Assembly (NCBI GenBank): GCA_021802545.1
Contig: JAJZRS010000006.1
Location: 9,308 to 73,307 of the forward strand
Direction of reading: 5' to 3'
DNA length: 64,000 nt
From: Pseudomonadota bacterium
GTDB taxonomy: Bacteria > Pseudomonadota > Gammaproteobacteria > Burkholderiales > JABEVD01
Below are positions 32,501-62,654 of this stretch, in pieces. Made by a program: the position numbers and the translations under genes. Within the stretch, counting starts at the first letter, position 1. Each line of letters opens with the position of its first letter. The notes beneath the pieces were generated by a model. The model ran no database searches and had not been told where the DNA came from. It worked only from the letters and a program-made list of their open reading frames with translations.

Positions 32501-33832
32501 ATCACCGACAAGGTGAGAAGCGATGAGCTGATCTGGCGCCAGGCCAACTTCGATCTGCTCACAAGCCTGCCCAACAGGCGGATGTTCTACGACAGGCTCG
32601 AACAGGAGATCAAGAAATCGAACAGGAGCGGATTGCCGCTCGCGCTGCTCTTCATCGACCTCGATCGCTTCAAGGAAGTCAACGATACGCTCGGCCACCA
32701 GAAGGGAGACATCCTGCTCGTCGAGGCGGCGCGCCGCATCGTTGCCTGCGTGCGCGAATCGGACACGGTTTCGCGCCTGGGAGGAGACGAATTCACCGTC
32801 ATTCTGTCCGAGCTTGCCGACACGGACCATGTCGAGACGATCGCCCAGCACATCATTTCGAGTCTCGTCGAGCCTTTCGTTCTCGAAAGCGAAATCGCCT
32901 ACGTTTCGGCAAGCATAGGCATCACCTTCTATCCGAACGATGCTCGCGACGTCGAGCAGCTTCTGCGGAATGCCGATCAGGCCATGTATGTTGCGAAGGA
33001 TACGGGGCGGAACCGGTTCTCCTATTTCACCCGAACGCTGCAGGAGAAAGCGCAGTCGAGAGTGAGAATGCTCAACGACCTGCGCGGCGCGCTGGGCTCG
33101 AACCAGTTCGAGCTCCATTTCCAGCCCATCGTCGATCTTTCCACCGGATTGGCCAGAAAGGCCGAGGCGCTGCTGCGCTGGCGCCATCCCGACAGGGGAA
33201 TGGTCAGCCCGCTGGAATTCATATCCCTTGCCGAGGAAACAGGGCTGATCATCGACATCGGGGATTGGGTTTTCAGGGAAGCTGCCCGCTGGGCGGGCCG
33301 CTGGACAGCGCTTTGCGGCGGCAATTTCCAGATCAGCGTGAACGAATCGCCGGTGCAGTTCCAGAACGAATCGAAAAACATCGACGCCTGGCTGGACCAC
33401 CTGGAAGCGCTCGGCATTTCAGGGCAGAACATCGTCATCGAGATCACGGAGGGGCTGCTGCTCAATGCCGATTCCGGCGTCACCGACAAGCTGATCCATT
33501 TCAGGGATGCGGGAATAGGCGTGGCTATCGACGATTTCGGCACGGGGTATTCCGCCTTGTCATATCTCAAGAAATTCGACATCGATTTTCTGAAGATCGA
33601 CCAGTCCTTCATCCGCGATCTTTCGACCGATCCGAGCGACATGGCGCTGGCGGAGGCGATCATCGTCATGGCGCACAAGCTCGATCTGAAGGTCATTGCA
33701 GAGGGGGTCGAGACGAGCGAACAGCAGCGCCTGCTGCAGATGGCGGGATGCGACTTCGCCCAGGGTTATCTTTTTTCGAAGCCGCTTCCCCCCGATGAAT
33801 TCGAGGCATTTCTGGAGGCTTGGGTCCCATGA
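29588..33832 (+). CDS. Multi-PAS / GAF / GAF / PAS - GGDEF - EAL signalling protein (1414 aa)
   Basis: It has several PAS S-box repeats, two GAF-like blocks, intact GGDEF ([10 protein letters not shown]) and intact EAL ([32 protein letters not shown]). Confidence 0.92.
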
Positions 33833-49434: not shown

Positions 49435-52134
49435 ATGAAGATCCGAACAGCATGCCTGGCCGCATTGTTCAATCTGGCCTTGCTCGCCACGCCGATGGCC
49501 CATGCGGACACATCGAGTTCCAAGGCGCCAATCAGCGACAACCTGAAGAAGATACTCTCCCTGATACCGGTACCCGGCATCAAGGGGGCGATGAACGGCC
49601 TGGTCGACGGGCTGAAGAAAGGTCAAAACGGCGGCTACGCCGCGAAAGCGACCGCGAACGGCGTGCCGCTGCAGCTTTATTTCTTCGGCAGCGGCGTGAG
49701 CCAGGCGGCCCTGCTGGTGGTGGACCACGAGATCGATGTGCCGCCCGTCTTCAACAACAAAGCATGGAAAAAACTGGCGGGCGCAAAGCTTTCAGGCACC
49801 ATCTTTTCCTTTTCAACGACAGACTTCGCACTGGATGTGAGCCAGATGCCGGCCGACTTCAGGCAAGTCGTCGCTCGCGACTACTTCAACGTGAGCTCGC
49901 TCAATTTCTCAAGCGGCGCCCAGGTCGCGGCCAGGATTGCGCTGGGCGGCGACATGAAGAAGGTCGTCGAGCAGGACCTGCATTTCACCGTGAAAGATTT
50001 CACGCTGCGCGCAGGCGTCGTTGTGCCGGTTCCGACCGATGCTGCCGGCAGCGCATCGCTCGTTGCATCGATGCTGGCTGACCTGAAGAATGTGGACAAG
50101 ACGCTGAAGGACCAGCCTGACTTTTTCGTCGAGTTCCAGCCGGCTCCGGGTACCCGCATCCAAGCTCCGCTCGGCATGAGCCAGCTGGTGCTCACGGACG
50201 CGACGATTTCGCTCACCGGCCATCTCGTGCTCGGCTTCCGGGGCAACATGTTCGTGCCGAGCGGAAAGAAATTCATCACCTTCTTCAATACGCCCCTGAC
50301 CCCGGCGGGGGTCATGGATTTCGGGGACTTCGAGTTCGGCATGGCTGCCCAGACCGCCACGCTGAGGGAGTTGGCCGAGTTGAGCCTGTGCCTGAACCCC
50401 GCGAGCCCCAAAGTGCCTGGCGGCAGCTTCATCAAGGGCATCGGCACATACAGGAACCAGCTCAATGCGCTGCTGAAGCCCCTGTCGGTGTTCGAGATCG
50501 AGAATCCCAACCAGGTCGGGGAATACGAGTTCGGCAACAAGAACAAGCCTTTCCCTCCCAAGAGCGCGTTCAACATACTCGTGCTCGGCCCGCTCGCCAG
50601 CTCGACAGATTCCAACGGCCAATCGCTCTCCGGACCGTATCTCCAGGCCCTCGGCAACGTGAGCGTGCTGAAGCAGAAGATGGGCAGCTTCAGGCTCACG
50701 GTGGGCCAGACCGGGCTGCACGGCTGGGTCGCGTCGGGACTCAATCTCAAGATGGGGCCGCTCGGCAGGCAGAACATCAGCATGCGGGCGAGCGCAGACA
50801 TCACCCAGGACAAGCAGCTGATGCTCGTGCATGGCGATCTGCTGGGCCGCAAGCTTGACGTGAGCATGGACGCCAACAGCCTCTCCATCGACAGCCCTGC
50901 GACCTGCGCCACGCCATTCGAGCTCGAAGAGCATCTCGACTTCCAGTCCGTGGCCACCCCGGATCTCTCGGCCCTGCTCGACAATCTACCCGGCGTGAAC
51001 GTCGACCCGTCGAAACTCGCCGGCTGCGTCGGAGCCGACCTGAAGAGCGCGTACCAGTGGGTGGCCGGCACCGGCAGCTCCCTCGGGGGATATACTGCGA
51101 ACCAGGCCAATCAGCAGCTGAAGAACATTGCCGATCAGGAAGCTGCAGCAGCGAAGGCCGCCCAGGATGCGTACAATGCCGCGAAGGATGCGGCCCGTCA
51201 GAAGGCGAACCAGGCAACGAACGATGCCATGAACGCCTTCAGGGATGCCGGCAACGCATTCAGGAAGCTGGGGGGCAAGAAGCACAAGCACCACAGCGGC
51301 CCCGATCCGAGATTCGCTGAGTCGGTTTTCAACTGGAGTTACTACTACGACCACAATCCCGATCTCGTCAAGGCTGGGGTCGACCTGGCGACGCATTGGC
51401 GGGACCATGGCTTCCAGGAGGGAAGGCAGGGCAGCCTCGAATTCAACGCCAGGTATTACCTCAGCCGTTATCCTGACGTGCAGCAGCAGTGCGGAAGCGA
51501 TTTGCTGTGCGCAACCAAGCATTGGCTATTCGGCGGCGGCATCGACCAGGGCCGTCAGGGCAGCCCCGATTTCAACGTCTATGACTACCTCAACCGGTAT
51601 CCTGACCTGCAGCAGGCATTCGGCCGGGACAATTATGCCGATGCGCTGGATCACTGGATCAATCATGGCCACGAAGAAGGACGCGACGGCAGCCCGGCTT
51701 CGTCCTACGCCGGCCCGGTTTCGGCGCCGGTGATCGCGGGAGGCGGCAGAGGCAACGACTGGAGCGATGCCGACGTGTGCGCGGGCTCGTTTGTGTCCGC
51801 AATCCACATGCGCTCGGCCCGCAACATCGATGGCATTGAATTCGGCTACGCCGGCCGCGGCTGGGCGCCCCCCCGCGGCTATACGGGGGGCAATCCCACA
51901 GCAGACGTGTATCTCGGGCCTGGCGAATATATCGTCAGGGTGGACTATGGCGGCCTCAATCCCATCGATTACCTGAAGTTCACGAGCAACCTCGGAAAAG
52001 TCTACGGGCCTTACGGATCGGGAAGTCCCGCGGGCAGTTACGAGGTGACGCCTGGGGAGAAGCTGGGCTGTGTGTCGGGGCGCGACGACAAGCACATCGA
52101 ACGACTCATCTTTTCTTCGACCGGGCCCCACTGA
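49435..52134 (+). CDS. Large secreted mosaic protein: unknown N-domain, Ala/Gln coiled segment, 3 short repeats, C-terminal jacalin-like lectin domain
   Basis: It has a Sec signal MKIRTACLAALFNLALLATPMAHA. A three-fold repeat Y..(R)YPD(L/V)QQ..G......H(W)...G..EGR.GS is present. The C-terminus GGG.GNDW....I..I......IDGIEFGY......G..GG......L.PGEYI..V......I..L.F.SN.G...GP.G resembles jacalin-type lectins. Confidence 0.7.
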   Translation: MKIRTACLAALFNLALLATPMAHADTSSSKAPISDNLKKILSLIPVPGIKGAMNGLVDGLKKGQNGGYAAKATANGVPLQLYFFGSGVSQAALLVVDHEIDVPPVFNNKAWKKLAGAKLSGTIFSFSTTDFALDVSQMPADFRQVVARDYFNVSSLNFSSGAQVAARIALGGDMKKVVEQDLHFTVKDFTLRAGVVVPVPTDAAGSASLVASMLADLKNVDKTLKDQPDFFVEFQPAPGTRIQAPLGMSQLVLTDATISLTGHLVLGFRGNMFVPSGKKFITFFNTPLTPAGVMDFGDFEFGMAAQTATLRELAELSLCLNPASPKVPGGSFIKGIGTYRNQLNALLKPLSVFEIENPNQVGEYEFGNKNKPFPPKSAFNILVLGPLASSTDSNGQSLSGPYLQALGNVSVLKQKMGSFRLTVGQTGLHGWVASGLNLKMGPLGRQNISMRASADITQDKQLMLVHGDLLGRKLDVSMDANSLSIDSPATCATPFELEEHLDFQSVATPDLSALLDNLPGVNVDPSKLAGCVGADLKSAYQWVAGTGSSLGGYTANQANQQLKNIADQEAAAAKAAQDAYNAAKDAARQKANQATNDAMNAFRDAGNAFRKLGGKKHKHHSGPDPRFAESVFNWSYYYDHNPDLVKAGVDLATHWRDHGFQEGRQGSLEFNARYYLSRYPDVQQQCGSDLLCATKHWLFGGGIDQGRQGSPDFNVYDYLNRYPDLQQAFGRDNYADALDHWINHGHEEGRDGSPASSYAGPVSAPVIAGGGRGNDWSDADVCAGSFVSAIHMRSARNIDGIEFGYAGRGWAPPRGYTGGNPTADVYLGPGEYIVRVDYGGLNPIDYLKFTSNLGKVYGPYGSGSPAGSYEVTPGEKLGCVSGRDDKHIERLIFSSTGPH

Positions 52135-52160: not shown

Positions 52161-52194
52161 AAGGGGTTGATCGGAAGATCAACCCCTTGTTTTA
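52161..52194 (+). terminator. Rho-independent terminator
   Basis: The hairpin AAGGGGTTGATC-GGAA-GATCAACCCCTT is followed by GTTTTAT. Confidence 0.7.
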
Positions 52195-52215
52195 TCTGGC
52201 TCCCCGACCTGGACT
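52195..52215 (-). repeat. tRNA-Asn 3'-end fragment A (att-like direct repeat)
   Basis: TCTGGCTCCCCGACCTGGACT is identical over 21 nt to 61344-61364 (tRNA 3' end plus 2 flanking nt). Confidence 0.8.
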
Positions 52216-52364
52216 GGTTGGCGATTAAACGGCCGGCATCCGAATCGTGCAACCGGCGCTTGCGCGCAACATCCCGTTCCAAGACGGCCGGAAGATTCGC
52301 TGCAATTTACAGCGCTGCAATCGCTGGGGTACGATGAATCCATTTGCAATTTGGAAAATTTCAC

Positions 52365-55262
52365 ATGACGACATCGGGTGAAAGGTTCTCGGACTCCCTA
52401 CCCGACATGGGTTCTCTCGTGCAAGGTTTGTTGGGCGAATCGGACAAGCTTTTGCTTGGATTGCTGAATAATGAGCTGATCGGCATCTATGTTATTCAGA
52501 ACAACCAGTTCCGCTATGTGAACTCGCGTTTCGCAGCGATGTTCGGGTACACGCAGGAAGAACTTTGCTGCGGAATGGGCCCGCTCGATTTAACCGTTCC
52601 GGAATACCGGCTGCTGGCCAGTCAAGAAATTGAGAGGCGTATCCAGAACGAAGCCAAGAGCAGCCACTATTCCTTCGAAAGCTTGCACAAGGATGGCAGC
52701 AGGCTTCATATAGAAGTGTTCGGCTGCCGCACCGAACTGGATGGGCGGCCGGCAATCATTGGCATGCTGATCGACAACACCGAACGTCGCAAGGCCGAAC
52801 TTGAAGTGAAGGAGCAGCTTCATTTCACCGCACAACTGATAGATGCCATCCCCAACCCCATCTTCTACAAGGATGAGCATGGCCGTTATCTGGGCTGCAA
52901 TAGTGCCTTCGAGCAGATGATCGGATGCCGGCGCGATGAAATATTGGGAAAAACAGTCTACGAACTTTCACCCAGGGAGCTTGCGGATGTCTATTATGCA
53001 GCCGACAAGTCATTGTTCGACAACCCGGGTATCCAGCGCTACGAAGCCACTGTCAGGTCCGGCGGCGGCGAACATAGGGACGTGTTGTTCAATAAAGCCA
53101 CCTTCAACAAATCCGACGATAGCCTGGGCGGTTTGGTGGGCATCATACTCGACATTACCGAACGCAAGCATATGGAAAATGCGTTGATGCAGCGCGAGCG
53201 GGAATATCGCACCCTGGTGGAAAACACGCACGATGTCGTGGTGCGATTCGACAGTGATTGCCGCCGCATCTACGTAAACAAAGCCTGGGAACGGGTCAAT
53301 GGCGTTCCTGCATCAGTGGTGCTCGGCAAATCCCCGAAAGAGGCTTCTGTCACCGTAAAATCGATTGCAGGGGATTATGAAAGGGTGGTGCGTGAGGTCA
53401 TTGCAAGCGGGCAGCCCGGCAAGCTGGATTTGACGTGGCGCAGCGAGGAAGGCGAGTTGTTTTGCTTTGCGATGACTGCAATTCCGGAATTCGACAGCAG
53501 CGGCAAGCCAATCACGGTATTGACAGTGGGGCGCGACATCACCAATCGCAAGCGGATGGAGGAAGAATTGGCTGCCCGCGAACAGGAGTGGCGTACCCTG
53601 GTTGAAAACTCCCCTGACACCATTGCCCGTTACGACCGCGATTGCCGGCGCATTTACGTCAATCCTGCATTTTGTGCGTTGACCGAAGGCGGCGCTGATG
53701 CGCTGCTGAACAAGAAGCCTTCAGAGTATCCCGGTGGGGCAATTTCTGTCAGTTACGAGGCCAACATCCGGGAAGTATTTGCGACCGGGAAGGATGCGGA
53801 GTTCGAATTGAACTGGAAAGACAAGACGGGCAACGAACTATGCAGCATCATTCGCCTGACGCCGGAAAAGGATCTGTCAGGCAAGGTGGTGACGGTCATG
53901 GGAGTGGGGCACGACATCTCCGAGCTGAACATGCAGCGCAAGGCAATCCATCAGATGGCGTTCTACGACATGTTGACCCAGCTTCCCAATCGGCGGCTTT
54001 TTCTGGACAGGCTGCAGCACGCATTGAATTCCAGCGCCCGCACCGGTCAGCACGGTTCGCTGCTGTTCCTGGATCTGGATAATTTCAAGACGCTCAACGA
54101 TTCGCTCGGCCATGATATCGGAGACATGTTGCTGCAACAGGTTGCGCAGAAGCTGACAACCTGCGTGCGCGAGTGCGACACCGTGGCGCGCATCGGCGGC
54201 GACGAGTTCGTCATCATCATGGAGAGCCTCAGCAAGGATCCCTTCGAAGCAGCTGCACAAACCGAAACGGTCGCAGAGAAGATACTGTTGTCCTTGAATT
54301 CCCCTTATCGCCTCGACAAGCATGAAGTCAGCACATCCTCCAGCATCGGAATCACCCTGTTCAGCAGTCACGAGCAGAAAATAGAGGAGCTGTGCAAACA
54401 GGCTGATATCGCCATGTACCAGGCCAAAAACACGGGCCGCAACAGCCACCGGTTTTTTGATCCGAAAATGCAGGATGCCGTCAACGCCCGCGTTGCATTA
54501 GGGAGCGAATTACGCAAGGCGATCGAAAATGGCGAGTTTCAGCTTCACTATCAAATTCAGGTTGATCGATCGGGCAGCCCCACGGGAGCCGAGGCGCTGA
54601 TCCGCTGGATTCATCCCGAGCGCGGCGTCGTATCCCCTGCGCAATTTATCCACCTTGCCGAAGAAACCGGCCTGATGCTGCCCATCGGGCAATGGGTTCT
54701 GGAGACGGCATGCGCGCAATTGCGGAAATGGCAGGAGAATGCGCTTACAAGAAACATTGTTCTGGCGGTGAACGTCAGCGCAAAACAGTTCCATCAGCCC
54801 AATTTCGTCGATCAGGTTCGGGAAGCGGTGCGGCGCCATGCCGTCAAGCCGGATCTGCTCAAACTGGAGCTGACAGAAAGCTTCTTTCTGGAGAACATCC
54901 AGGACGCGATCGCCACCATGAATACATTGAAGGAGATCCGCATCCAGTTCTCCCTGGACGACTTCGGCACCGGCTATTCTTCGCTGCAATACCTCAAGCG
55001 GCTGCCGCTTGACCAACTCAAGATCGACCAGTCGTTTGTACGCGACATTGCGGTCGACAGCAGCGACAAGGCGATCGTGAGCACCGTCATCGCGATGGCG
55101 CAAAGCATGAATCTCGATGTCATCGCCGAAGGGGTGGAAACTGAAAACCAGCTGCAATTTCTCCAGGAAAAGGGATGCAACCAATATCAGGGATACTTCT
55201 TCGGAAAACCAGTGCCGATCGAACAGTTCGAAGCATCATTAATACAGGCTTCCCGATCTTGA
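52365..55262 (+). CDS. Multi-PAS - GGDEF - EAL signalling protein
   Basis: It has four PAS-like blocks, GGDEF intact (ARIGGDEFVI) and EAL intact ([36 protein letters not shown]). ATG 52365 is preferred over the TTG at 52344. Confidence 0.9.
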   Translation: MTTSGERFSDSLPDMGSLVQGLLGESDKLLLGLLNNELIGIYVIQNNQFRYVNSRFAAMFGYTQEELCCGMGPLDLTVPEYRLLASQEIERRIQNEAKSSHYSFESLHKDGSRLHIEVFGCRTELDGRPAIIGMLIDNTERRKAELEVKEQLHFTAQLIDAIPNPIFYKDEHGRYLGCNSAFEQMIGCRRDEILGKTVYELSPRELADVYYAADKSLFDNPGIQRYEATVRSGGGEHRDVLFNKATFNKSDDSLGGLVGIILDITERKHMENALMQREREYRTLVENTHDVVVRFDSDCRRIYVNKAWERVNGVPASVVLGKSPKEASVTVKSIAGDYERVVREVIASGQPGKLDLTWRSEEGELFCFAMTAIPEFDSSGKPITVLTVGRDITNRKRMEEELAAREQEWRTLVENSPDTIARYDRDCRRIYVNPAFCALTEGGADALLNKKPSEYPGGAISVSYEANIREVFATGKDAEFELNWKDKTGNELCSIIRLTPEKDLSGKVVTVMGVGHDISELNMQRKAIHQMAFYDMLTQLPNRRLFLDRLQHALNSSARTGQHGSLLFLDLDNFKTLNDSLGHDIGDMLLQQVAQKLTTCVRECDTVARIGGDEFVIIMESLSKDPFEAAAQTETVAEKILLSLNSPYRLDKHEVSTSSSIGITLFSSHEQKIEELCKQADIAMYQAKNTGRNSHRFFDPKMQDAVNARVALGSELRKAIENGEFQLHYQIQVDRSGSPTGAEALIRWIHPERGVVSPAQFIHLAEETGLMLPIGQWVLETACAQLRKWQENALTRNIVLAVNVSAKQFHQPNFVDQVREAVRRHAVKPDLLKLELTESFFLENIQDAIATMNTLKEIRIQFSLDDFGTGYSSLQYLKRLPLDQLKIDQSFVRDIAVDSSDKAIVSTVIAMAQSMNLDVIAEGVETENQLQFLQEKGCNQYQGYFFGKPVPIEQFEASLIQASRS

Positions 55263-55292
55263 CTCGAACCGGGGGCTGAGGATTGACAGTCC
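55247..55292 (-). repeat. tRNA-Asn 3'-half fragment B (degenerate)
   Basis: A hand alignment to the tRNA 3' end through the anticodon arm gives 39 matches over 47 tRNA positions with one gap. It includes GACTCGAACC and GATTGACAGTCC (GATTAACAGTCC in the tRNA). Confidence 0.7.
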
Positions 55293-55724
55293 TATCAGTC
55301 GATCCAGTATTTATGCGGGTTTGAGGCCAACCGTGGCTCCGTGAAATCTAAATGCCCCTTTGTTTTTCAACCCTTTGTTGACTGTGCGGAGCGGCTGAAA
55401 TGTGTCCAATTCCGCTGTTCGCTTCGCCATGGGTTAACCGGCAGCTATCAGAATCGAGCCGACACACAATATGCCAACTCATTGGCAATGCCTCGGTCAA
55501 AGCATCCGGTCGCGGATTATTGCCAACCTTTTCAAGCCAGGCAATTGATAGGGGATATCGCACTAGCTCAAAAGTGGCTCTACCCGTACCTAGGCAAAAG
55601 AATGGTGATGACACCATCAAATAGCATTCCTACAGTTTCACAATTTGATGATCTCCTGTAGAGTCTGAAAGACGTTATTTCAACAAGCTCGAAACTGCCC
55701 ATCAAATTGGAGCGTTTGCCGCTA

Positions 55725-58616
55725 ATGAAATTCAAACCACATATGTGGGTCATTGTCTTAATCCTCCTCTCCACTTGTACGCAGGCAGCCGTCCTGCGCG
55801 TCGTAACCGATGACAATTATCCCCCATACCTTTATCGCAACCCTGAAGGCAAAATCCAGGGTTACGAAGTCGACATATGGAAGTTGTGGGAGCAGAAAAC
55901 CGGCATCAAAGTAGATCTCATGGCGACGCAATGGGCGGATGCGCAACGCAGGCTGCTGGATGGAAAAGCTGATGTCATTGACATGATATTTCGTACACCT
56001 GAACGAGAAATTCTCTATGACTTTTCAAAACCTTATGTGAAGCAATCGGTGGCTATATATGTGGATGCGTCGATTTCGGGAATACATAATATTGACGACC
56101 TGAAAGGTTTTCAGATCGGCGTCGAAGCGGGCGATGCATGCGTCGAAAAACTACATGATTCGGGGGTGCTCGATCTGCGCCTTTACGATAATTATTCCGA
56201 CATGATTGAGAGTGCATCGCGGCAACAGATCAAGATGTTTTGCCTGGACGAAAAACCAGCTAATTACTACCTTTACAAACTCAACCTCTATGAAAAATTC
56301 AACAAGGCATTCGTGCTCTATCAGGCCTCCTTTCACCAGGCCGTGAAAAAAGGAAATTCTGCGGAATTGCGGCTTGTCGAGCAGGGAATGCAAGAAATCA
56401 CTTCCCAGGAAAAGGATGCGTTGAAAAAGAAATGGTATGGCGAAGCCTATCCTCAATTCAAGCATTCAAAAATTCTCGCCGAACTTTTGACCGGCTTGAT
56501 TTTGCTGCTCGCGGCGTCGATGGTATGGCTAAAATCGCTGCGCAGCGCTGTACGATCAAGGACGTCAGAATTGGAGCAGGAACGCGCTCAGCTTCGCACG
56601 CTGGTCGAAAGCAGTCCGGACTTGATCTGGTTGAAAAACGAGGAAGGGGTCTATCTGACATGCAATCAAAAGGCAGCGCTGATGCTCGGCAAGACTCCTC
56701 AGGAAGTCATCGGCAAGACAGATGCTGATTTGATGGATCAGAATATTGCAGACCAACTCAGGAAAGACGATCTGCGAGCGATTCAATCCGGCCAGCTGGT
56801 TTCGGTTGAAGAATGGATGCCTGCCACAGATGGAACCCCCCGCTTGCTTGAGACAGTCAAGTTGCCAATCAGGGGATCAGCGGGAAATTTCATAGGCGTG
56901 CTTGGGGTAGCGCGCGACATCACGGAGCGCCGATCAAACGAGCGTGCATTGGCAAATCAAGCCAGTATGCTCAAGGAAATGAGCGGTTTGGCTCACATCG
57001 GAGCTTGGGAATTCGATCCGGTCACGGGAGACGGGACTTGGACAGAAGAGGTGGCGCTGATCCACGAGGTTGACACGACGGCCTCTACCAACATGTCCTT
57101 TGGTATGAGCTTCTATATTGGGGAGAGCCGGAAAGCCATTGAACAGGCAGTCGATGCCGCAATAACGAGCGGGGCCCCCTACGACCTGGAGCTTGAAATG
57201 GTCACAGCCAAGGGAAATCGCAAGTGGGTTCGTACCATCTGCCATCCTTTGATTGAAGAAGGGAAGGTGATACGGATTCGCGGGACGATTCAGGACATTA
57301 CTGAGCGAAAGCGTGTCGAGGCGCAAGTCGAACACTTGGCATTCCATGATCAGCTGACGAGGCTTCCCAATCGCAGATTGTTCCGCGACCGTCTCGAGCA
57401 GGACATGAAGCGCGTGATTAGAGACAAATCCTCTCTTGCGCTGCTGTTCATTGACCTGGACCGATTCAAGGAAGTGAACGATACGCTGGGGCATGACAAG
57501 GGCGACATTCTCCTTGTCGAGGCAGCAAGGCGGATCAGGCAACATGTGCGGGATTCGGACACCATCGCTCGACTCGGGGGGGATGAATTTGCCATCATTC
57601 TGCCTGACTATGGAGAGACATCGAACATCGATCGAGTTGTGAGGGAAGTGCTGCAAGCCCTCGAAATGCCGTTCGACTTGGGGGACAGGAATGTCGGCCA
57701 CATTTCCGGCAGCATCGGTATCGCCCTCTATCCCCACGAGGCCGAGAGCATCGATGATCTGTTGAGGCACGCTGATCAGGCAATGTATGCAGCAAAAAGT
57801 TCTGGAGCAAACCGTTTCAGCTATTTCACGCGGAAAATGCAGGATGAAGCTCGCAATAAGGTGTGTCTGACCAACGAACTTCGCCATGCACTGGAACTGA
57901 ATCAGCTCGAAGTGTATTTCCAGCCTATCGTGGATACCCGAAGCAGCGAAATCGTCAAGGCAGAGGCATTGCTGCGTTGGCATCATCCTGAACGTGGAGA
58001 CATCAGCCCTGTCATTTTTATTCCACTGGCAGAGGAGTCGGGGCTGATTCTGGAGATTGGCGATTGGGTGTTCAAGGAAGCCTTGAGAAACATCGCAACA
58101 TGGCAGAAAAATACCGGGAAACTGCTTCAGGTCAGCGTGAACAAGTCATCTGCACAATTCATGCGGGAAGATAAGCCACGCTGGCGGGAAAGTTACCTCA
58201 GATCGGGGCTGCCCGAGCACGTCGTCACGGTTGAAATTACCGAAAGCTTGTTGTTGTCCGATTCTGAAAGGGTAAGAAGTTCATTTGATTTTTTTAAGGA
58301 ACATGGCATCGAGCTGTCAATCGATGATTTCGGAACTGGTTTTTCAGCCCTTTCATACCTGCACCGCTTCGATGTCGATTACCTGAAAGTAGACAAGTCT
58401 TTCGTGCAGAAGATGACGACAGACGCCTCCAGCAGGGCATTGACCGAGGCAATCATCATCATGGCGCACAAGCTCAACATCAAGACGATCGCCGAAGGCG
58501 TTGAAACAGAAGAGCAGCGCGATCTGCTTAAAGCATTCGGCTGCGACTACCTGCAAGGTTTCCTTTTTTCCAAACCCGTTCCTGCGAGCGAATTCGAAAA
58601 AATGATTTGTGGATGA
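55725..58616 (+). CDS. Periplasmic SBP(family 3)-TM-PAS-PAS-GGDEF-EAL signalling protein
   Basis: The N-terminal solute-binding domain reads LRVVTDDNYPPYLYRNPEGKIQGYEVDIW. A TM helix and two PAS domains follow. GGDEF is intact (ARLGGDEFAI) and EAL is intact (AEALLRWHHP, EITE, DDFGTGFS, KVDKSF, EGVE, QG). ATG 55725 is preferred over the TTG at 55707. Confidence 0.9.
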   Translation: MKFKPHMWVIVLILLSTCTQAAVLRVVTDDNYPPYLYRNPEGKIQGYEVDIWKLWEQKTGIKVDLMATQWADAQRRLLDGKADVIDMIFRTPEREILYDFSKPYVKQSVAIYVDASISGIHNIDDLKGFQIGVEAGDACVEKLHDSGVLDLRLYDNYSDMIESASRQQIKMFCLDEKPANYYLYKLNLYEKFNKAFVLYQASFHQAVKKGNSAELRLVEQGMQEITSQEKDALKKKWYGEAYPQFKHSKILAELLTGLILLLAASMVWLKSLRSAVRSRTSELEQERAQLRTLVESSPDLIWLKNEEGVYLTCNQKAALMLGKTPQEVIGKTDADLMDQNIADQLRKDDLRAIQSGQLVSVEEWMPATDGTPRLLETVKLPIRGSAGNFIGVLGVARDITERRSNERALANQASMLKEMSGLAHIGAWEFDPVTGDGTWTEEVALIHEVDTTASTNMSFGMSFYIGESRKAIEQAVDAAITSGAPYDLELEMVTAKGNRKWVRTICHPLIEEGKVIRIRGTIQDITERKRVEAQVEHLAFHDQLTRLPNRRLFRDRLEQDMKRVIRDKSSLALLFIDLDRFKEVNDTLGHDKGDILLVEAARRIRQHVRDSDTIARLGGDEFAIILPDYGETSNIDRVVREVLQALEMPFDLGDRNVGHISGSIGIALYPHEAESIDDLLRHADQAMYAAKSSGANRFSYFTRKMQDEARNKVCLTNELRHALELNQLEVYFQPIVDTRSSEIVKAEALLRWHHPERGDISPVIFIPLAEESGLILEIGDWVFKEALRNIATWQKNTGKLLQVSVNKSSAQFMREDKPRWRESYLRSGLPEHVVTVEITESLLLSDSERVRSSFDFFKEHGIELSIDDFGTGFSALSYLHRFDVDYLKVDKSFVQKMTTDASSRALTEAIIIMAHKLNIKTIAEGVETEEQRDLLKAFGCDYLQGFLFSKPVPASEFEKMICG

Positions 58617-58716
58617 ACCAATGAAAACATCTGTTTTCTGATCTCAACTGTCAATTGCAATGTAGTTGGGGATCCTCTAACTGCTTTTCACGAGTTGCGG
58701 ATCGGGGTGAAACGAA

Positions 58717-58751
58717 AAAGGCGTGCAAATCATGCAAGCCTTTGTTTTATT
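58717..58751 (+). terminator. Rho-independent terminator (one mismatch in stem)
   Basis: The hairpin AAAGGCGTGCA-AATCA-TGCAAGCCTTT is followed by GTTTTATT. Confidence 0.55.
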
Positions 58752-58780
58752 TGGCTCCCCGACCTGGACTCGTGACCTGC
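58752..58780 (-). repeat. tRNA-Asn 3'-end fragment C (att-like direct repeat)
   Basis: TGGCTCCCCGACCTGGACTCG (21 nt) is identical to 61346-61366. GACCTGC follows, matching the tRNA after a 7-nt deletion. Confidence 0.8.
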
Positions 58781-58798
58781 CCCCAAAAGGGATACCTG

Positions 58799-58837
58799 AT
58801 GCAAGCCTTTGTTTTATTCGGCTCACCAACTTGAATG
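58799..58837 (-). repeat. Degenerate duplicate of terminator tail + tRNA fragment (67-bp offset from fragment C)
   Basis: ATGCAAGCCTTTGTTTTATT (58799-58818) is identical to 58732-58751. The following 19 nt match fragment C at 12 positions. Confidence 0.65.
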
Positions 58838-58892
58838 AATCAGTGTAACTGGATTTATACCATCGCAATTTGAATATGGTGTGCCTTGAGTT

Positions 58893-59204
58893 TTATTTGT
58901 CAGCAGCATACGTTGAATTTATTTTGGCATTAAATTCTTCTAGTGCCATTGATATAGGTTTTTCATTCTCAGCCAAACCCTTCAACGTGTTTTGACAAAA
59001 TTCGATTAGCGTAGATGTCGGGACAGTTACCTGAAAATTGATTTTACGTAGTTCCTTGCCAGACTTTTCATCTAGCCCAACGGTTGTTTGGATCTGTATC
59101 TTTGATACAGGAATACCAATCATAGCTGATAGCCCATCAGCATAAACTTGAGCAGCAGATGCCATAGACTCAGGTATTACAGAAACGATAGGGGGAGTGC
59201 TCAT
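58893..59204 (-). CDS. Hypothetical protein (103 aa), third gene of the AT-rich operon
   Basis: This intact ORF has a start that overlaps the upstream stop by 4 nt (ATGA). I recognise no family. The composition is strongly AT-rich compared with the rest of the window. Confidence 0.55.
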   Translation of the reverse strand: MSTPPIVSVIPESMASAAQVYADGLSAMIGIPVSKIQIQTTVGLDEKSGKELRKINFQVTVPTSTLIEFCQNTLKGLAENEKPISMALEEFNAKINSTYAADK

Positions 59205-59797
59205 CTCTTTATCCTTGTTGAGTTGTTATCTAGATAGTGTCTTTCATGTGTTGCTACACTCAATTCTGTCATGCTTCCACTTTCTGCAGAGGCTATCGGC
59301 AGTAACTCAATGTTTGTTCTAATGGAGAATGGTGACATAACAGAAATATAGAAAGGTTTATGGTTTCCATTAGTAATATCTTGCGCTACTTCATATGCTG
59401 ATTGCACATGCAATATCGGGAATGTGGTTGTTACTGTTTGAGTCGCATGAGGCGCATCCTTCCAATATGATGTACGTTCCTCAGTTATCTTTCGCGCTGA
59501 AATCACAGGCTCCATACCCATGCCGAGCAAAAGGTCGCTCACGGTATCTATAGTCCAATTGCCGGGTGATCCTAGCCAACGAGTGATTTGTTCAGGTTTT
59601 CGTTTAATTTTTCTAGCAAGTTTTGCACGACTCGTTTTGCCTGCGCGCTCTTGAGCTGCAAATTCCCTTAGCACAAGTTCGTGGAGTTTATTGCTAAAAC
59701 GTCCACGAAAATATGCCAACATTACAGTTGGAATCTCTTTGCCACTTTCTTCAGGCTCAGACGAGGTAGGTATTTGATATACAGGCTGGGTAGTCAT
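59201..59797 (-). CDS. HTH (XRE-like) protein with ~110-aa C-terminal domain of unknown function
   Basis: The segment TSRAKLARKIKRKPEQITRWLGSPGNWTIDTVSDLLLGMGME looks like an XRE-type helix-turn-helix. AGGAG precedes the ATG-ATG pair at 59800/59797. It overlaps the upstream gene by ~41 nt. Confidence 0.55.
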   Translation of the reverse strand: MTTQPVYQIPTSSEPEESGKEIPTVMLAYFRGRFSNKLHELVLREFAAQERAGKTSRAKLARKIKRKPEQITRWLGSPGNWTIDTVSDLLLGMGMEPVISARKITEERTSYWKDAPHATQTVTTTFPILHVQSAYEVAQDITNGNHKPFYISVMSPFSIRTNIELLPIASAESGSMTELSVATHERHYLDNNSTRIKR

Positions 59798-60299
59798 CAT
59801 CGTCTCCTGATGATTTAGGTTCGTAGGTTGGGAGTAGTTTTTTCCACTCCGTTTTGCAGCCGACAATTGCATCCCTCCATGCTCTATCTGTAGGGCCTCC
59901 CAGGTCAGTTCTGTGCCACCAATTCAAAGCGATAAACACATCTCTATCAGCAAATCTTCCCAGTACTCGGATACTAGGCTTCGGGTCTCTGCTTCTAATT
60001 TCCCATACTTCCTCGCGAAATCGAAACAACTGCCTCATGTATGCGTTCTTGCCCCCAAGTAGAGGATGTTCTGCTATTGGAATTATCCCGCCTTGCATAA
60101 ACCGATCGAAATCGGCGCGCAGATAACCACATCGCTCTTCCCATTCTTCGTTATGCCATGGCCCAACAAGAAGAGAATAGATTTCCTCATTAACGTACAT
60201 CTGTCGAGGACTTGCTCCTTCGTCTGGCGCCATTATCGGTTGCAACAAATGAAGTCGCCCCTCTTGTACTCTATTTGTAATTTCAGCTGAAATTGACAT
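59757..60299 (-). CDS. Hypothetical protein (180 aa), possible RelE/Gp49-like toxin core with N-terminal extension
   Basis: The segment EVWEIRSRDPKPSIRVLGRFADRDVFIALNWWHR resembles the '..W E(L/I)R....yR(V/I)ly.f....vv.L..f.K' core of RelE/HigB/Gp49 toxins, but the similarity is weak. ATG 60299 is preferred over the TTG at 60308. Confidence 0.5.
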   Translation of the reverse strand: MSISAEITNRVQEGRLHLLQPIMAPDEGASPRQMYVNEEIYSLLVGPWHNEEWEERCGYLRADFDRFMQGGIIPIAEHPLLGGKNAYMRQLFRFREEVWEIRSRDPKPSIRVLGRFADRDVFIALNWWHRTDLGGPTDRAWRDAIVGCKTEWKKLLPTYEPKSSGDDDDYPACISNTYLV

Positions 60300-60521
60300 A
60301 TAAGTCAATATGTATGTTCGACATATGAATCAATATATTCGTTCTCGAATAGAATCAGTATCTCCCGTCTAAGTAACACGGGGGGCTACAAATACATTCC
60401 CAGCAAATCTATCCTCTTTCCCCTGTTCTGACAATGATCTAGACACATTCCATTTACGCAGCCGAGCACCGCACAGTAAGACAAAGGGGAAGTGAACGCT
60501 GGAGCGTAGGCGCCGAGAAAT

Positions 60522-60917
60522 CTAGCGGGGAGTTTCCTGCATGAACAACGAGCGCATGGAGCGAACGAATTCCTGCGCCTCCAGCACTGATCTGGCAGCA
60601 TCTTCGGGTTCAACGGAGTCACCTTTGTAATCGGCGATGAGACGAAGTTCCTCCGCCCGATTAAGCGCTTTTCCAAGTTCTATCGGCACGCGCTTCGTCT
60701 TGACGAGATTCAGGCTGAATGCGGTGATCAGGCCGTTGTGCGTTCTGGCGATTTCGGGTTGAACATTGGAACGCGATGTCAGCAAGGCTGCCCGGGCAGC
60801 GTCGAACATGGCGTAGTATGCCCGGTTGCAGGCGCCGTCGACATCCCCAGCTTCCAGCAGCAGTTTTGCGGACACAACTGCCTGGTCCGCTTTTGCCATC
60901 AAATCAGCGGCGTTCAC
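60522..60917 (-). CDS. HEPN domain protein (toxin of a HEPN/MNT pair)
   Basis: It is a helical protein with ..A...L.......D.A.NRAYYAMF.AA.A.L and ...THNGL..F. The GTG start overlaps the MNT gene stop (GTGA). Confidence 0.75.
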   Translation of the reverse strand: MNAADLMAKADQAVVSAKLLLEAGDVDGACNRAYYAMFDAARAALLTSRSNVQPEIARTHNGLITAFSLNLVKTKRVPIELGKALNRAEELRLIADYKGDSVEPEDAARSVLEAQEFVRSMRSLFMQETPR

Positions 60918-61261
60918 AGCCGAATGCCGTCACGGTCTATGTTTGCGAGCAGGCGGGGATTGGAATATGCATCCGGATGTACCCATTCCTGTTCCCAGAT
61001 CGGAAGGGGCTGGATGCGGATACCGGTTTCCAGAAGCACTTCATAGGCCAGGTCGCCCATGTCAAGCTTGGTCGACACGAAATTGCCGGGCTGCCCACGC
61101 AGGAGGACGGCCACGTCCGCATCGCTGTCTGGGCGGTGGGCTTTTCTTGCCCGGCTGCCGAAGAGGATGGCACCGGCGAAATCATAGCGATCCGAGACCA
61201 TTGCGATGAAGGAGCGGGTCGCGTTGATGGTTTCTGCGTCGATGTCAGCGAGAGAGCCCAT
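60914..61261 (-). CDS. Nucleotidyltransferase (MNT) domain protein (antitoxin of a HEPN/MNT pair)
   Basis: It has the LFGSRARKAHRPDSDADVAVLL GS-x10-DxD pol-beta signature. ATG 61261 is preferred over the TTG at 61297. Confidence 0.75.
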   Translation of the reverse strand: MGSLADIDAETINATRSFIAMVSDRYDFAGAILFGSRARKAHRPDSDADVAVLLRGQPGNFVSTKLDMGDLAYEVLLETGIRIQPLPIWEQEWVHPDAYSNPRLLANIDRDGIRL

Positions 61262-61268
61262 GCGTATA

Positions 61269-61297
61269 AGAATAGTAAGAGACTTTAGGAGTGTCAA
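61269..61297 (-). promoter_or_regulatory. Candidate promoter giving a (near-)leaderless MNT/HEPN transcript
   Basis: The minus strand has TTGACA (61297-61292), a 17-nt spacer and TATTCT (61274-61269). The ATG at 61261 lies only 7 nt downstream of the -10 element and has no SD sequence. Confidence 0.35.
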
Positions 61298-61302
61298 TGA
61301 AT

Positions 61303-61329
61303 CAAAAAAGCCCGGTCAGTAACCGGGCT
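61303..61329 (-). terminator. Rho-independent terminator of tRNA-Asn
   Basis: On the minus strand, the hairpin AGCCCGGT-TACTG-ACCGGGCT is followed by TTTTTT, 17 nt after the tRNA CCA end. Confidence 0.75.
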
Positions 61330-61345
61330 TTTCCTTCATCGATTC

Positions 61346-61421
61346 TGGCTCCCCGACCTGGACTCGAACCAGGGACCTGCGGATTAACAGTCCGTCGCTC
61401 TACCGACTGAGCTATCAGGGA
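61346..61421 (-). tRNA. tRNA-Asn (anticodon GTT)
   Basis: The 76-nt sequence is TCCCTGATAGCTCAGTCGGTAGAGCGACGGACTGTTAATCCGCAGGTCCCTGGTTCGAGTCCAGGTCGGGGAGCCA. It folds as a cloverleaf by eye with a 7-bp acceptor stem, anticodon loop CTGTTAA and an encoded CCA. It is very similar to E. coli tRNA-Asn. Confidence 0.95.
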
Positions 61422-61457: not shown

Positions 61458-62654
61458 TCAAGACCCGAGCGCGTCTGCTATCCTGGAAAGCGCCTTCTCG
61501 AGGTTCTCCATCGAGGTCGCGAATGAAAGCCTCATGTAGCCTTCCAGCCCGAAAGCGGAACCCGGCACGACCGCAACCCCCGCCTTTTCCAGCAGGTATT
61601 CGCAGAAGGCGATGTCGGTGGCTTCATTGATGATGCCCTGTTCGTGCAGATTGGCGATCGCTTCCCTGGAATCCGCAAAGGCGTAGAATGCGCCGCCCGC
61701 GTGCAGGCATTTGAGGCCCGGAATCGAATTGAGCTTCTTCACCACATAGACGTGCCGCTTCCTGAATGCGTCCAGCATGGGCAGGATGCAGGACTGGTCG
61801 CCGTTGAGGGCGGCTTCGGCCGCGACCTGCGAAATCGAGGTCGGGTTAGAGGTGCTCTGCGACTGCACGTTCTCCATCGCCGTGATGAGCTCCGCGGGTC
61901 CCGCGCAATAGCCGATCCGCCATCCCGTCATCGAATAGGCCTTGGAAACCCCGTTCAGCACCATCGTCCTGCCGTAAAGATCGGGACAGGCGTTCAATAT
62001 GTTGACGAATTTCTTTCCCTGAAGGTTGATGTGCTCGTACATGTCGTCCGTTGCGATCAGCACCTGCGGATGGCGCCTCAAGACTTCCCCGAGCGCTTCC
62101 AGCTCCTCGAGGGAATAGACTGCGCCGCTCGGGTTGCTCGGGCTGTTGATCACGACCATCCTGGTTTTTGGCGTGATCGCAGCTTCCAGCTGCTTCGGGG
62201 TGATCCTGAATCCCTGCTCGATGCCTGCCTCGACGATCGCGGGCTTGCCTCCGGCGATCACGACGATGTCCGGATAGGAGACCCAGTAGGGGGCGGGAAT
62301 GACGACTTCGTCGCCTTCGTCTATGGCTGCAAGCGCGAGATTGAAAAAGCTCTGCTTGCCCCCACATGAAACGAGGATCTGCTTCGCTTCGTATTCGAGG
62401 CCGTTGTCGCGCATGAATTTCTCGATGATCGCGCGCTTGAGGCTCGGCGTTCCGCCGACCGCGGTATACTTGGTGAATCCGCTCTCGATCGCAGCGATGG
62501 CTGCATCCTTGATGTGCCTTGGCGTGTCGAAATCGGGTTCACCCGCCCCCAGGCCGATGATGTCGCGTCCTTCCGCCTTGAGCTTCGCAGCTCTTGCGGT
62601 GACGGCGAGTGTGGGGGAGGGTTTGATGGCCTGGACGCGAGTCGAAAGTTTCAC
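61458..62654 (-). CDS. Class I PLP-dependent aminotransferase (aspartate/prephenate aminotransferase type)
   Basis: It reads [31 protein letters not shown] and the PLP-Lys motif [13 protein letters not shown]. The GTG start 62654 ([15 protein letters not shown]) is preceded by TAGGGAA. The longer track N-terminus is rejected. Confidence 0.88.

Follow-up and report, generated by a model that had tools for sequence, protein, structure and literature searches.

A tRNA-Asn gene and copies of its 3′ end

We analysed 64,000 nt of a Pseudomonadota genome (GenBank assembly GCA_021802545.1, contig JAJZRS010000006.1, positions 9,308 to 73,307; hereafter the window) and focused on the 9 kb at 52161–61421, where an intact tRNA-Asn gene, partial copies of its 3′ end and several accessory genes lie side by side. 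The only tRNA gene in the window is this tRNA-Asn(GTT), located at 61346–61421 on the minus strand, on which ARAGORN and Rfam (67.6 bits) agree. It is taken here as the integration target, on the attL side.

Four partial copies follow it, all on the tRNA strand (minus) and in the same orientation. Fragment C (58752–58772, or 58715–58780 with flank and hairpin) is an exact copy of the last 21 nt of the tRNA. Next to it, GCAGGTC (58774–58780) corresponds to tRNA positions 42–48, preceded by a 6–7-nt deletion of the 5′ strand of the T arm; the AATAAAACAAAGG flank and a hairpin then follow. Fragment A (52195–52215, or 52163–52215 with flank and hairpin) comprises 19 exact tRNA nucleotides and the two flank nucleotides GA, then the ATAAAACAAGGGG flank and a strong hairpin, and forms the distal boundary of the array. 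Fragment B (55247–55292) is a degenerate copy of about 48 nt in which 39 of 48 columns match, from tRNA position 29 and hence into the anticodon arm. Its similarity extends about 10 nt beyond the tRNA end, to 55236, and it overlaps the stop codon of the adjacent PAS-GGDEF-EAL gene (52365–55262). Finally, a repeat search (repeat family D1, 69% to A) detected fragment C′ (58802–58840), a decayed extra copy of the tRNA 3′ end and its flank, 67 nt from C. Read by eye, its GTTGGTGAGCCGAATAAAACAAAGGCTTGCAT and the C copy agree at 29 of 32 positions, and it contains a duplicate of the fragment C flank. The flanks of A, C and C′ are mutually homologous, with RATAAAACAARGGSTTG followed by a hairpin.

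When the tRNA, extended by 14 nt, was aligned locally to both strands of the window, B scored 53 and C and A 42 each, the next best hit being 28; 30 Markov-simulated windows reached 31 at most, their maxima averaging 25.4. Moreover, the 20-mer, with up to three mismatches allowed, occurs within the window at these sites alone (0.03 expected). An intact target therefore stands at one end and significant co-oriented 3′-end repeats stand at the other boundaries, which is the arrangement by which we recognise an array.

Hairpins were assessed by folding. That of the tRNA, in the arm at 61262–61345, reaches −22.2 kcal/mol (z −5.7), that after A −23 kcal/mol (z −7.6), and that after C has a z of −3.3; hairpins after B and C′ are not significant. 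A simple terminator scan had overlooked the A and C hairpins, both of which folding then confirmed. Hairpins after the tRNA, C and A make up the pattern expected of former tRNA ends with their own terminators. A variant contig (ERZ27237050; L144, 14878–14886) differs from window positions 52245–52260, in the spacer between A and the first GGDEF-EAL gene, by a 9-nt insertion and several substitutions, with fragment A and its hairpin invariant.

These results largely agree with an earlier note made from the sequence alone. Its positions for the tRNA and its description of A (19 tRNA nucleotides and two of flank) and of C (21 exact nucleotides, then 58774–58780 after a deletion, 6–7 nt by alignment) hold, and so do the terminator hairpins that it placed beside A and C. 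It rightly read B as a degenerate copy reaching into the anticodon arm, but counted its 39 matches over 47 positions rather than the 48 columns found here. The four copies that it listed are real and co-oriented; C′ at 58802–58840 is a fifth that it had missed.

Gene content and composition

The GC content is 0.41–0.47 at 58.5–60.5 kb and 0.44–0.48 at 55.3–56.7 kb, compared with 0.58–0.64 in the flanks, as anticipated by the note, which had described the enclosed DNA as AT-richer, most strongly at 58.9–60.4 kb. Non-coding space between the array genes does not exceed 444 nt.

The cassette next to the tRNA begins with a left arm (61262–61345, minus strand) made of the tRNA terminator hairpin, then a promoter-like site (TTGACA-17-TATTCT, 61297–61269) ahead of two overlapping genes. 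The first encodes a 115-aa MNT nucleotidyltransferase (60914–61261, minus strand; Pfam Polbeta and NTP_transf_2), an antitoxin-like partner of HEPN that matches the PADLOC candidate system PDC-S09 (3.8e-51) and, weakly and under its cut-off, NCBIfam MntA. The second, with a 4-nt overlap, encodes a 131-aa HEPN protein of the UPF0332 type (60522–60917, minus strand; Pfam HEPN, 2.3e-15) that has 3437 homologues. From their order, overlap and domains, the two are predicted to be a HEPN-MNT toxin–antitoxin (TA) pair.

Further from the tRNA lies an operon of three genes, all on the minus strand, encoding p180 (180 aa, 59757–60299), p198 (198 aa, 59201–59797) and p103 (103 aa, 58893–59204). Searches of Pfam, PHROG and NCBIfam gave no sequence-family match to these proteins except weak ones to p198, namely a helix-turn-helix (HTH) family of PHROG (E 0.013) and, in PADLOC, PDC-M64C. 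Accordingly, p198 is annotated as a putative HTH antitoxin or regulator, and p103 has no family match. The first protein, p180, has only 66 homologues. Its AlphaFold2 model (predicted local distance difference test score 90.8) has a HigB/RelE-like toxin fold, the best matches in the PDB being the HigB toxins 6af3/6af4 (E 1e-3, prob 1.0), then HigB2 and ParE1; target-normalised TM-scores against HigB are 0.57–0.64, and p180 has an extra N-terminal part. The gene order is conserved at homologous loci, where a third gene of 100–216 aa occupies the place of p103. On the strength of the modelled p180 fold, the weak HTH match of p198 and the toxin-first order, the operon is probably a HigBA-like TA module with a third gene, which refines the earlier description of it as unknown in a gene inventory that otherwise stands. 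A 17-nt imperfect palindrome, TTGACTTATATGTCAAT, spans the p180 start codon (60293–60309). It is identical in a Methylophilus homologue (contig L162, 9513–9529) despite 61% protein identity, and is probably an operator through which the operon would regulate itself.

Two large signalling genes on the plus strand occupy the remainder. Between C and B, and convergent with the tRNA, lies the gene of a 963-aa SBP_bac_3-PAS-GGDEF-EAL protein (Pfam; 55725–58616; hereafter GGDEF-EAL 2), called identically in contigs L083, L146 and L147. The gene between B and A encodes a 965-aa protein with four PAS domains, GGDEF and EAL (Pfam; 52365–55262; GGDEF-EAL 1), found as the exact protein in five contigs. 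In addition, an 89-aa open reading frame (ORF) on the minus strand (55348–55617), between B and GGDEF-EAL 2, is present on a single public contig; it has no family match and is doubtful as a gene. Outside the array, a 1414-aa ORF at 29588–33832 contains a GGDEF-EAL part about 65% identical in DNA to the gene at 55725–58616, of which it is a paralogue.

The array contains no integrase, excisionase or transposase according to Pfam on its main ORFs. Nor was an integrase remnant found in it with tblastn (121 integrases) or with a profile hidden Markov model (HMM) of 121 integrases in six frames, both of which gave noise only, inside GGDEF-EAL 2; the absence of an integrase, asserted in the note, thus stands. 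In the window outside the array, tblastn with the integrase of a related contig (L147, see below), the sole screen applied there, found none either. Pfam, tblastn and the six-frame integrase profile HMM revealed no transfer genes inside the array elements. Two identities were considered for the array and rejected: prophage, as 52161–61421 has no phage structural, lysis or replication genes (which the sister haplotypes L081 and L147 do have), and integron, as there is no integrase in the array and the repeats are tRNA 3′ fragments and not attC sites.

On the tRNA side, the array is bordered by the aspartate aminotransferase (AspAT) gene aspC (61458–62654, minus strand; Pfam Aminotran_1_2, 6.5e-74), a conserved chromosomal gene next to the tRNA on its upstream side; uvrB lies further out. 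The opposite flank carries a gene for an 899-aa jacalin-domain protein (49435–52134, plus strand; Pfam Jacalin), with a secretin gene upstream, and this jacalin-side flank is common to all related contigs.

Variation within the population

Contigs that are 99.8–100% identical to the window vary at its tRNA-proximal end, and it is for this end only that variation in occupancy was established. At 99.9–100% flank identity there are three states: the window type (L146, L155), the L147 type and the prophage of L081. Exact-protein look-ups showed that L146/L149, L155 and L083 reproduce the window at 99.9–100% identity. Contig L081 (GCA_027321055.1) is 99.9% identical to it from uvrB to 13 nt past the tRNA, after which comes a tailed prophage with lysozyme, tail and baseplate genes.

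In L147 (ERZ27237461:k141_733850, a 66.5-kb contig), identity to the window is 100% over 6.2 kb (55188–61379). At the place of the intact tRNA, however, L147 has a 34-nt scar (f34). This is followed by an MNT′-HEPN′ cassette, a 30-nt scar (f30), a three-gene HTH_3 cassette and a 48-nt scar (f48). The MNT′-HEPN′ cassette measures about 0.86 kb, has a predicted terminator and promoter of its own, and its HEPN′ stop codon lies 10 nt from f34. Its DNA is 76% identical to the MNT-HEPN unit of the window, the arm included, which indicates two related elements and not a duplication. About 115 nt past f48 comes the gene of a 362-aa tyrosine integrase (PF00589), together with genes for a DUF4224 protein, a single-stranded DNA-binding protein (SSB), a DNA methylase and a reverse transcriptase. 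Past f48, the flank shares 89% identity with the one behind the intact tRNA of L081, and TTTGGCAG motifs that resemble arm-type sites recur in it. Significant hairpins also follow the intact tRNA in L081 and the scars f48 and f30 in L147.

Hence, although the window-type (H1) and L147-type (H2) haplotypes share 6.2 kb at 100% identity, a prophage and two cassettes set them apart, which indicates a single en-bloc event. This was either a composite integration or a deletion from the tRNA to the 34-nt scar, by site-specific recombination or short homology. Separately, a diversity-generating retroelement (bAvd and an RVT_1 reverse transcriptase) lies beside the methylase and SSB genes in the sister-haplotype prophage (L153, 1106–2819; L147, 12894–13429).

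The integrase family and the lengths of its att blocks

Homologues of the L147 integrase number 1400, and among them are integrases of Burkholderia prophages at about 70% identity. The terminal 20-mer of the tRNA occurs in 59 contigs of IMG/VR. Many of these contigs have only its last 45–49 nt, followed by a terminator-type flank, and a second group has 31–32 nt. In five viral contigs (L134, L088, L101, L086 and L117), integrase homologues (46–76% identical) lie 100–170 nt from tRNA-Asn blocks of 45–48 nt, a geometry that is the same as in L147. The population thus contains a phage integrase family that is predicted to be specific for tRNA-Asn and whose identity block, of about 48 nt, starts in the anticodon stem.

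The extent of such an identity block reportedly reflects the sublocation of the crossover. Fragment B (about 48 nt) and f48 of L147 match the 45–48-nt blocks found beside integrase homologues, and scars of 30–35 nt match the 31–32-nt viral blocks. The latter scars (f30 and f34 of L147, and C before its deletion) cover the whole T arm only, which suggests a second class of elements, or truncation. The cassette proteins of the window have no match in the 59 tRNA-Asn viral loci; against viral contigs, HEPN gave one match (52%) and p180 none.

The site and the p180 operon in other genomes

The linkage of AspAT and tRNA-Asn genes is conserved across many beta- and gammaproteobacterial loci, and the best AspAT matches (82%) belong to metagenome-assembled genomes (MAGs) of Gallionellales and Nitrosomonadales. 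A comparable scar array is absent from all 80 AspAT loci examined, and at 82% AspAT identity or less the relatives have nothing downstream in common with the window, so that the ancestral flank could not be defined.

A parallel comes from a Methylophilus MAG (L162), in which uvrB, aspC and a gene of 188 aa precede tRNA-Asn, itself followed by the three-gene operon (61% identity). An exact 48-nt repeat of the 3′ part of the tRNA and a terminator come next, so that the whole is a 1.65-kb integrase-less element. Two further assemblies of this population break exactly at the 48-nt block. In the left arm of the element, TTCCGCAA occurs at +41 and +60 after the tRNA end, the same positions as in a 36-kb prophage at tRNA-Asn of a related host (L173), in which the next gene differs. 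The motif recurs in the right arm of the cassette, once direct and once inverted. The window, for its part, retains exact cores at C and A, with B and C′ decayed, and phage-like arm motifs were not recognised in it.

The flank that accompanies A, C and C′ is also found elsewhere, as RATAAAACAARGGSTTG and a hairpin follow the intact tRNA-Asn in a related genome (L181) and partial blocks of 46–49 nt in L180 and L182. In L181, three or four TGATAGCG repeats resembling arm-type sites lie after the terminator of the intact tRNA-Asn (1995–2105) and would belong to another integrated element. Most of the genomes examined seem to have an occupied tRNA-Asn site. A scan of JGI metagenomes for empty sites, using the A/C junction pattern, retrieved other organisms only.

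Boundaries inside the array and assembly breaks

The segment from the tRNA to C is probably composite, made of an MNT-HEPN and a three-gene unit. In the spacer between HEPN and p180, three sequencing runs have Logan contigs that begin at 60400, and one Logan contig ends at 60372; 60372–60402 may therefore be a hidden boundary between the two units. A second copy of the 31-mer at 60372–60402 was not found.

A further set of breaks lies beside fragment B. Contigs from four independent assemblies stop at 55328, and two contigs assembled with k=141 begin at 55188; one of the four assemblies (Logan) presumably used a k-mer much shorter than 141. The breaks at 55328|55329 point to an unseen alternative haplotype, diverging 36 nt upstream of B. 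Exact-protein look-ups gave no alternative junctions, the jacalin protein not being on record and the 89-aa ORF being on one contig. The 7-mer GGAGCCA, which is the tRNA terminus, occurs near this break, at 55334–55340.

Discussion

Taken together, the data make it likely that tandem accretion at the tRNA-Asn gene downstream of uvrB-aspC produced the region, as an array of integrase-less elements comparable to cis-mobilizable elements (CIMEs). The elements that survive are devoid of integrase genes and carry addiction- or defence-type cargo (MNT-HEPN and the HigB-like toxin operon) as well as two genes of cyclic di-GMP (c-di-GMP) signalling. The tRNA-proximal end is still active in the population, as a sister haplotype has a prophage with a tRNA-Asn-type integrase and two TA cassettes stacked between tRNA and array. 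Moreover, one cassette recurs across families between tRNA-Asn repeats. The earlier note had read the locus as repeated site-specific integration at a tRNA 3′ end, and the scar lengths, the L081 prophage, the L147 integrase and the 48-nt repeat in Methylophilus agree with it. Its further statement that the array looks fixed or decayed applies to the distal part, but not to the tRNA-proximal end, which is polymorphic in the same population, where a matching integrase occurs.

Such an array would have formed as elements with a terminator and an attP copying the 3′ part of tRNA-Asn integrated in succession by tyrosine-integrase recombination. Each integration, of the Campbell type, would have rebuilt the tRNA from the copy brought by the element and displaced the previous 3′ end and terminator distally, leaving C′, C, B and A as former tRNA 3′ ends. 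The length of a scar would then reflect the attP identity block, about 48 nt (B) corresponding to an anticodon-loop class and about 30–35 nt (C before its deletion) to a T-arm class. The integration genes may have been lost later or may never have been present, and the TA modules probably favour retention of the elements. What remains would be decayed elements or minimal cassettes, whose movement would require an integrase acting in trans or a neighbour to move with en bloc.

Several observations weigh against this interpretation. Comparison with related genomes, which the note had proposed as a check, revealed variable occupancy and a discrete cassette but no empty site of the same species, in which the tRNA would be joined straight to the A or C flank, and neither excision nor integration of any window cassette was observed. 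Attachment of the L147 prophage to an intact tRNA is deduced from a contig read short of its far end. For the two GGDEF-EAL segments, neither presence/absence polymorphism nor a homologous element elsewhere was seen, and their GC content deviates modestly only. Fragment B is more decayed than the more distal A, whereas accretion in which the oldest copy is the most distal predicts otherwise. A and C (19–21 nt) are shorter than any attP block found beside this integrase family. No scar separates HEPN from p180, where only the 17-nt palindrome at the p180 start aligns with Methylophilus. Finally, in two other lineages the p180 operon lies away from any tRNA and without flanking repeats, so that it is not always tRNA-linked.

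Two other accounts dispense with mobile elements altogether. It is hardly conceivable that the matches have nothing to do with the tRNA and reflect chance or a short dispersed repeat: the shortness of A and C (19–21 nt) is the sole point in its favour, and the matches are confined to these 9 kb of the 64-kb window, on one strand, with scores far over the simulated maxima. The note had stated that a repeat dispersed over many loci, or relatives with an invariant order, would speak against integration; instead, the repeat is confined to the locus and related genomes vary at the site. It is also very unlikely that the fragments are decayed tandem duplicates of tRNA-Asn. Some bacteria do have clustered tRNA-Asn copies (e.g. 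Acinetobacter loci L044 and L052), and B extends into the anticodon arm as such a pseudo-tRNA would. However, the 5′ half of the tRNA is absent from every fragment, the fragments agree in length with attP blocks and enclose foreign AT-rich cargo, a prophage and an integrase occupy the same site in sister haplotypes, and the Methylophilus repeat is an exact 48-nt 3′ block.

The extent and the present mobility of the array leave more room for debate. We consider it rather unlikely, though worth retaining, that only the part from the tRNA to C is foreign, the GGDEF-EAL genes being long-resident and A and B very old relics that delimit nothing mobile. The order jacalin gene, GGDEF-EAL 1, GGDEF-EAL 2 is the same in every related contig spanning the stretch, GGDEF-EAL 1 has a GC content of 0.53–0.56, close to that of the flanks, paralogues exist elsewhere in the window (as at 29588–33832), and B is decayed with a flank hairpin that is not significant. 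On the other hand, A, whose 19-nt copy is exact and whose hairpin is intact, does not look ancient, the break of four assemblies at 55328|55329 beside B implies an alternative haplotype, neither gene has an orthologue at the site in relatives with 74–82% AspAT identity, and the N-terminal part of GGDEF-EAL 2 has a GC content of 44–48%. There is a somewhat better, still minor, chance that the cassettes are minimal integrase-less elements that still move, by means of tRNA-Asn-phage integrases acting in trans or en bloc, the whole being an integron-like, tRNA-anchored array. The MNT′-HEPN′ cassette of L147 accords with this, being self-contained in about 0.86 kb, with a stop codon 10 nt from the 34-nt scar, and 76% identical to the window unit, as two related elements would be. 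So do the p180 operon, which in Methylophilus makes up a 1.65-kb unit complete with phage-like arm motifs and a 48-nt repeat, and the complete identity of H1 and H2 over 6.2 kb, which implies a single gain or loss en bloc. Against it, neither a circularised cassette nor a cassette attP junction was seen, the MNT-HEPN arms do not contain the arm-type motifs found in the local prophage (TTTGGCAG), the 30–35-nt scars are without the anticodon arm that an integrase of the 48-nt class probably needs, and an internal deletion of the prophage or homologous recombination between 34-nt repeats could look alike. To a similarly limited degree, we entertain that each cassette packs a TA or defence operon, with its terminator, promoter and att core, into as little as about 0.9 kb, and that such cassettes are att-site hitchhikers spreading between families (Gallionellales-like, Methylophilus).

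For tandem accretion of integrase-less elements, parallels are at hand. CIMEs and accretion are defined in PMC5704250. In Dehalococcoides, 15 tandem islands at ssrA are without an integration module and were proposed to be cis-mobilizable (McMurdie et al. 2011, PMC3146451). Like the present array, these islands lie in tandem downstream of one small-RNA gene, with 3′-end direct repeats and content that varies between strains. There, however, integration is into the tmRNA gene by a serine recombinase (DsiB), all repeats measure 20 bp and reductive dehalogenases form the cargo, whereas here we find a tRNA-Asn target, a phage tyrosine integrase (in the sister haplotype), scars of 19–48 nt and a cargo of TA or defence and GGDEF-EAL genes. 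The streptococcal CIMEs related to the integrative and conjugative elements (ICEs) ICESt1 and ICESt3, and their site-specific accretion, are described by Pavlovic 2004 and Bellanger 2011, as summarised in the review PMC5704250. They too have lost integration and transfer genes, have kept their att sites and, at the 3′ end of a target gene, form a tandem with an element that bears an integrase, and the composite can move as one unit. Unlike the present elements, with a prophage as partner in a betaproteobacterial metagenome population and putative mobility, they are derivatives of Firmicutes ICEs whose cis-mobilisation has been shown experimentally.

The asn tDNAs of Klebsiella are hotspots for the integration of islands (PMC4891358). 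As here, enterobacterial islands of this kind use tRNA-Asn 3′ ends as hotspots and are flanked by short direct repeats of the tRNA end; they usually carry a P4-like integrase gene by the tRNA, with repeats of about 17–20 bp, and span tens of kb, in contrast to the 0.9–3.5-kb integrase-less units of the window. The high-pathogenicity island (HPI) of Yersinia is another enterobacterial asparagine-tDNA island. The likeness to integron arrays, in which compact cassettes, promoter-poor or self-contained and often with TA modules, stand in a row and one external recombinase serves them all, is architectural only, as there is no IntI, attI or attC here, and the repeats are tRNA fragments that would recombine in the phage manner (attP × attB). 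Integrase-less tandem accretion at small-RNA genes is thus known already. What is distinctive here is the self-contained TA cassettes of 0.9–1.7 kb, the mixed scar lengths and the population evidence of stacking beside an integrase-bearing prophage.

As the locus illustrates, tRNA scars suffice for recognising and delimiting integrase-less islands, and such units are missed by island finders that rely on integrases. The locus also explains the recurrent metagenome assembly breaks at this place. Haplotypes with and without the integrase-bearing prophage and the extra cassettes provide a natural test case for the mobilisation of minimal cassettes in cis or in trans. Overall, accretion of this kind suggests a route by which TA or defence genes and c-di-GMP genes may accumulate at the uvrB-aspC-tRNA-Asn hotspot of iron-oxidiser-like betaproteobacteria.

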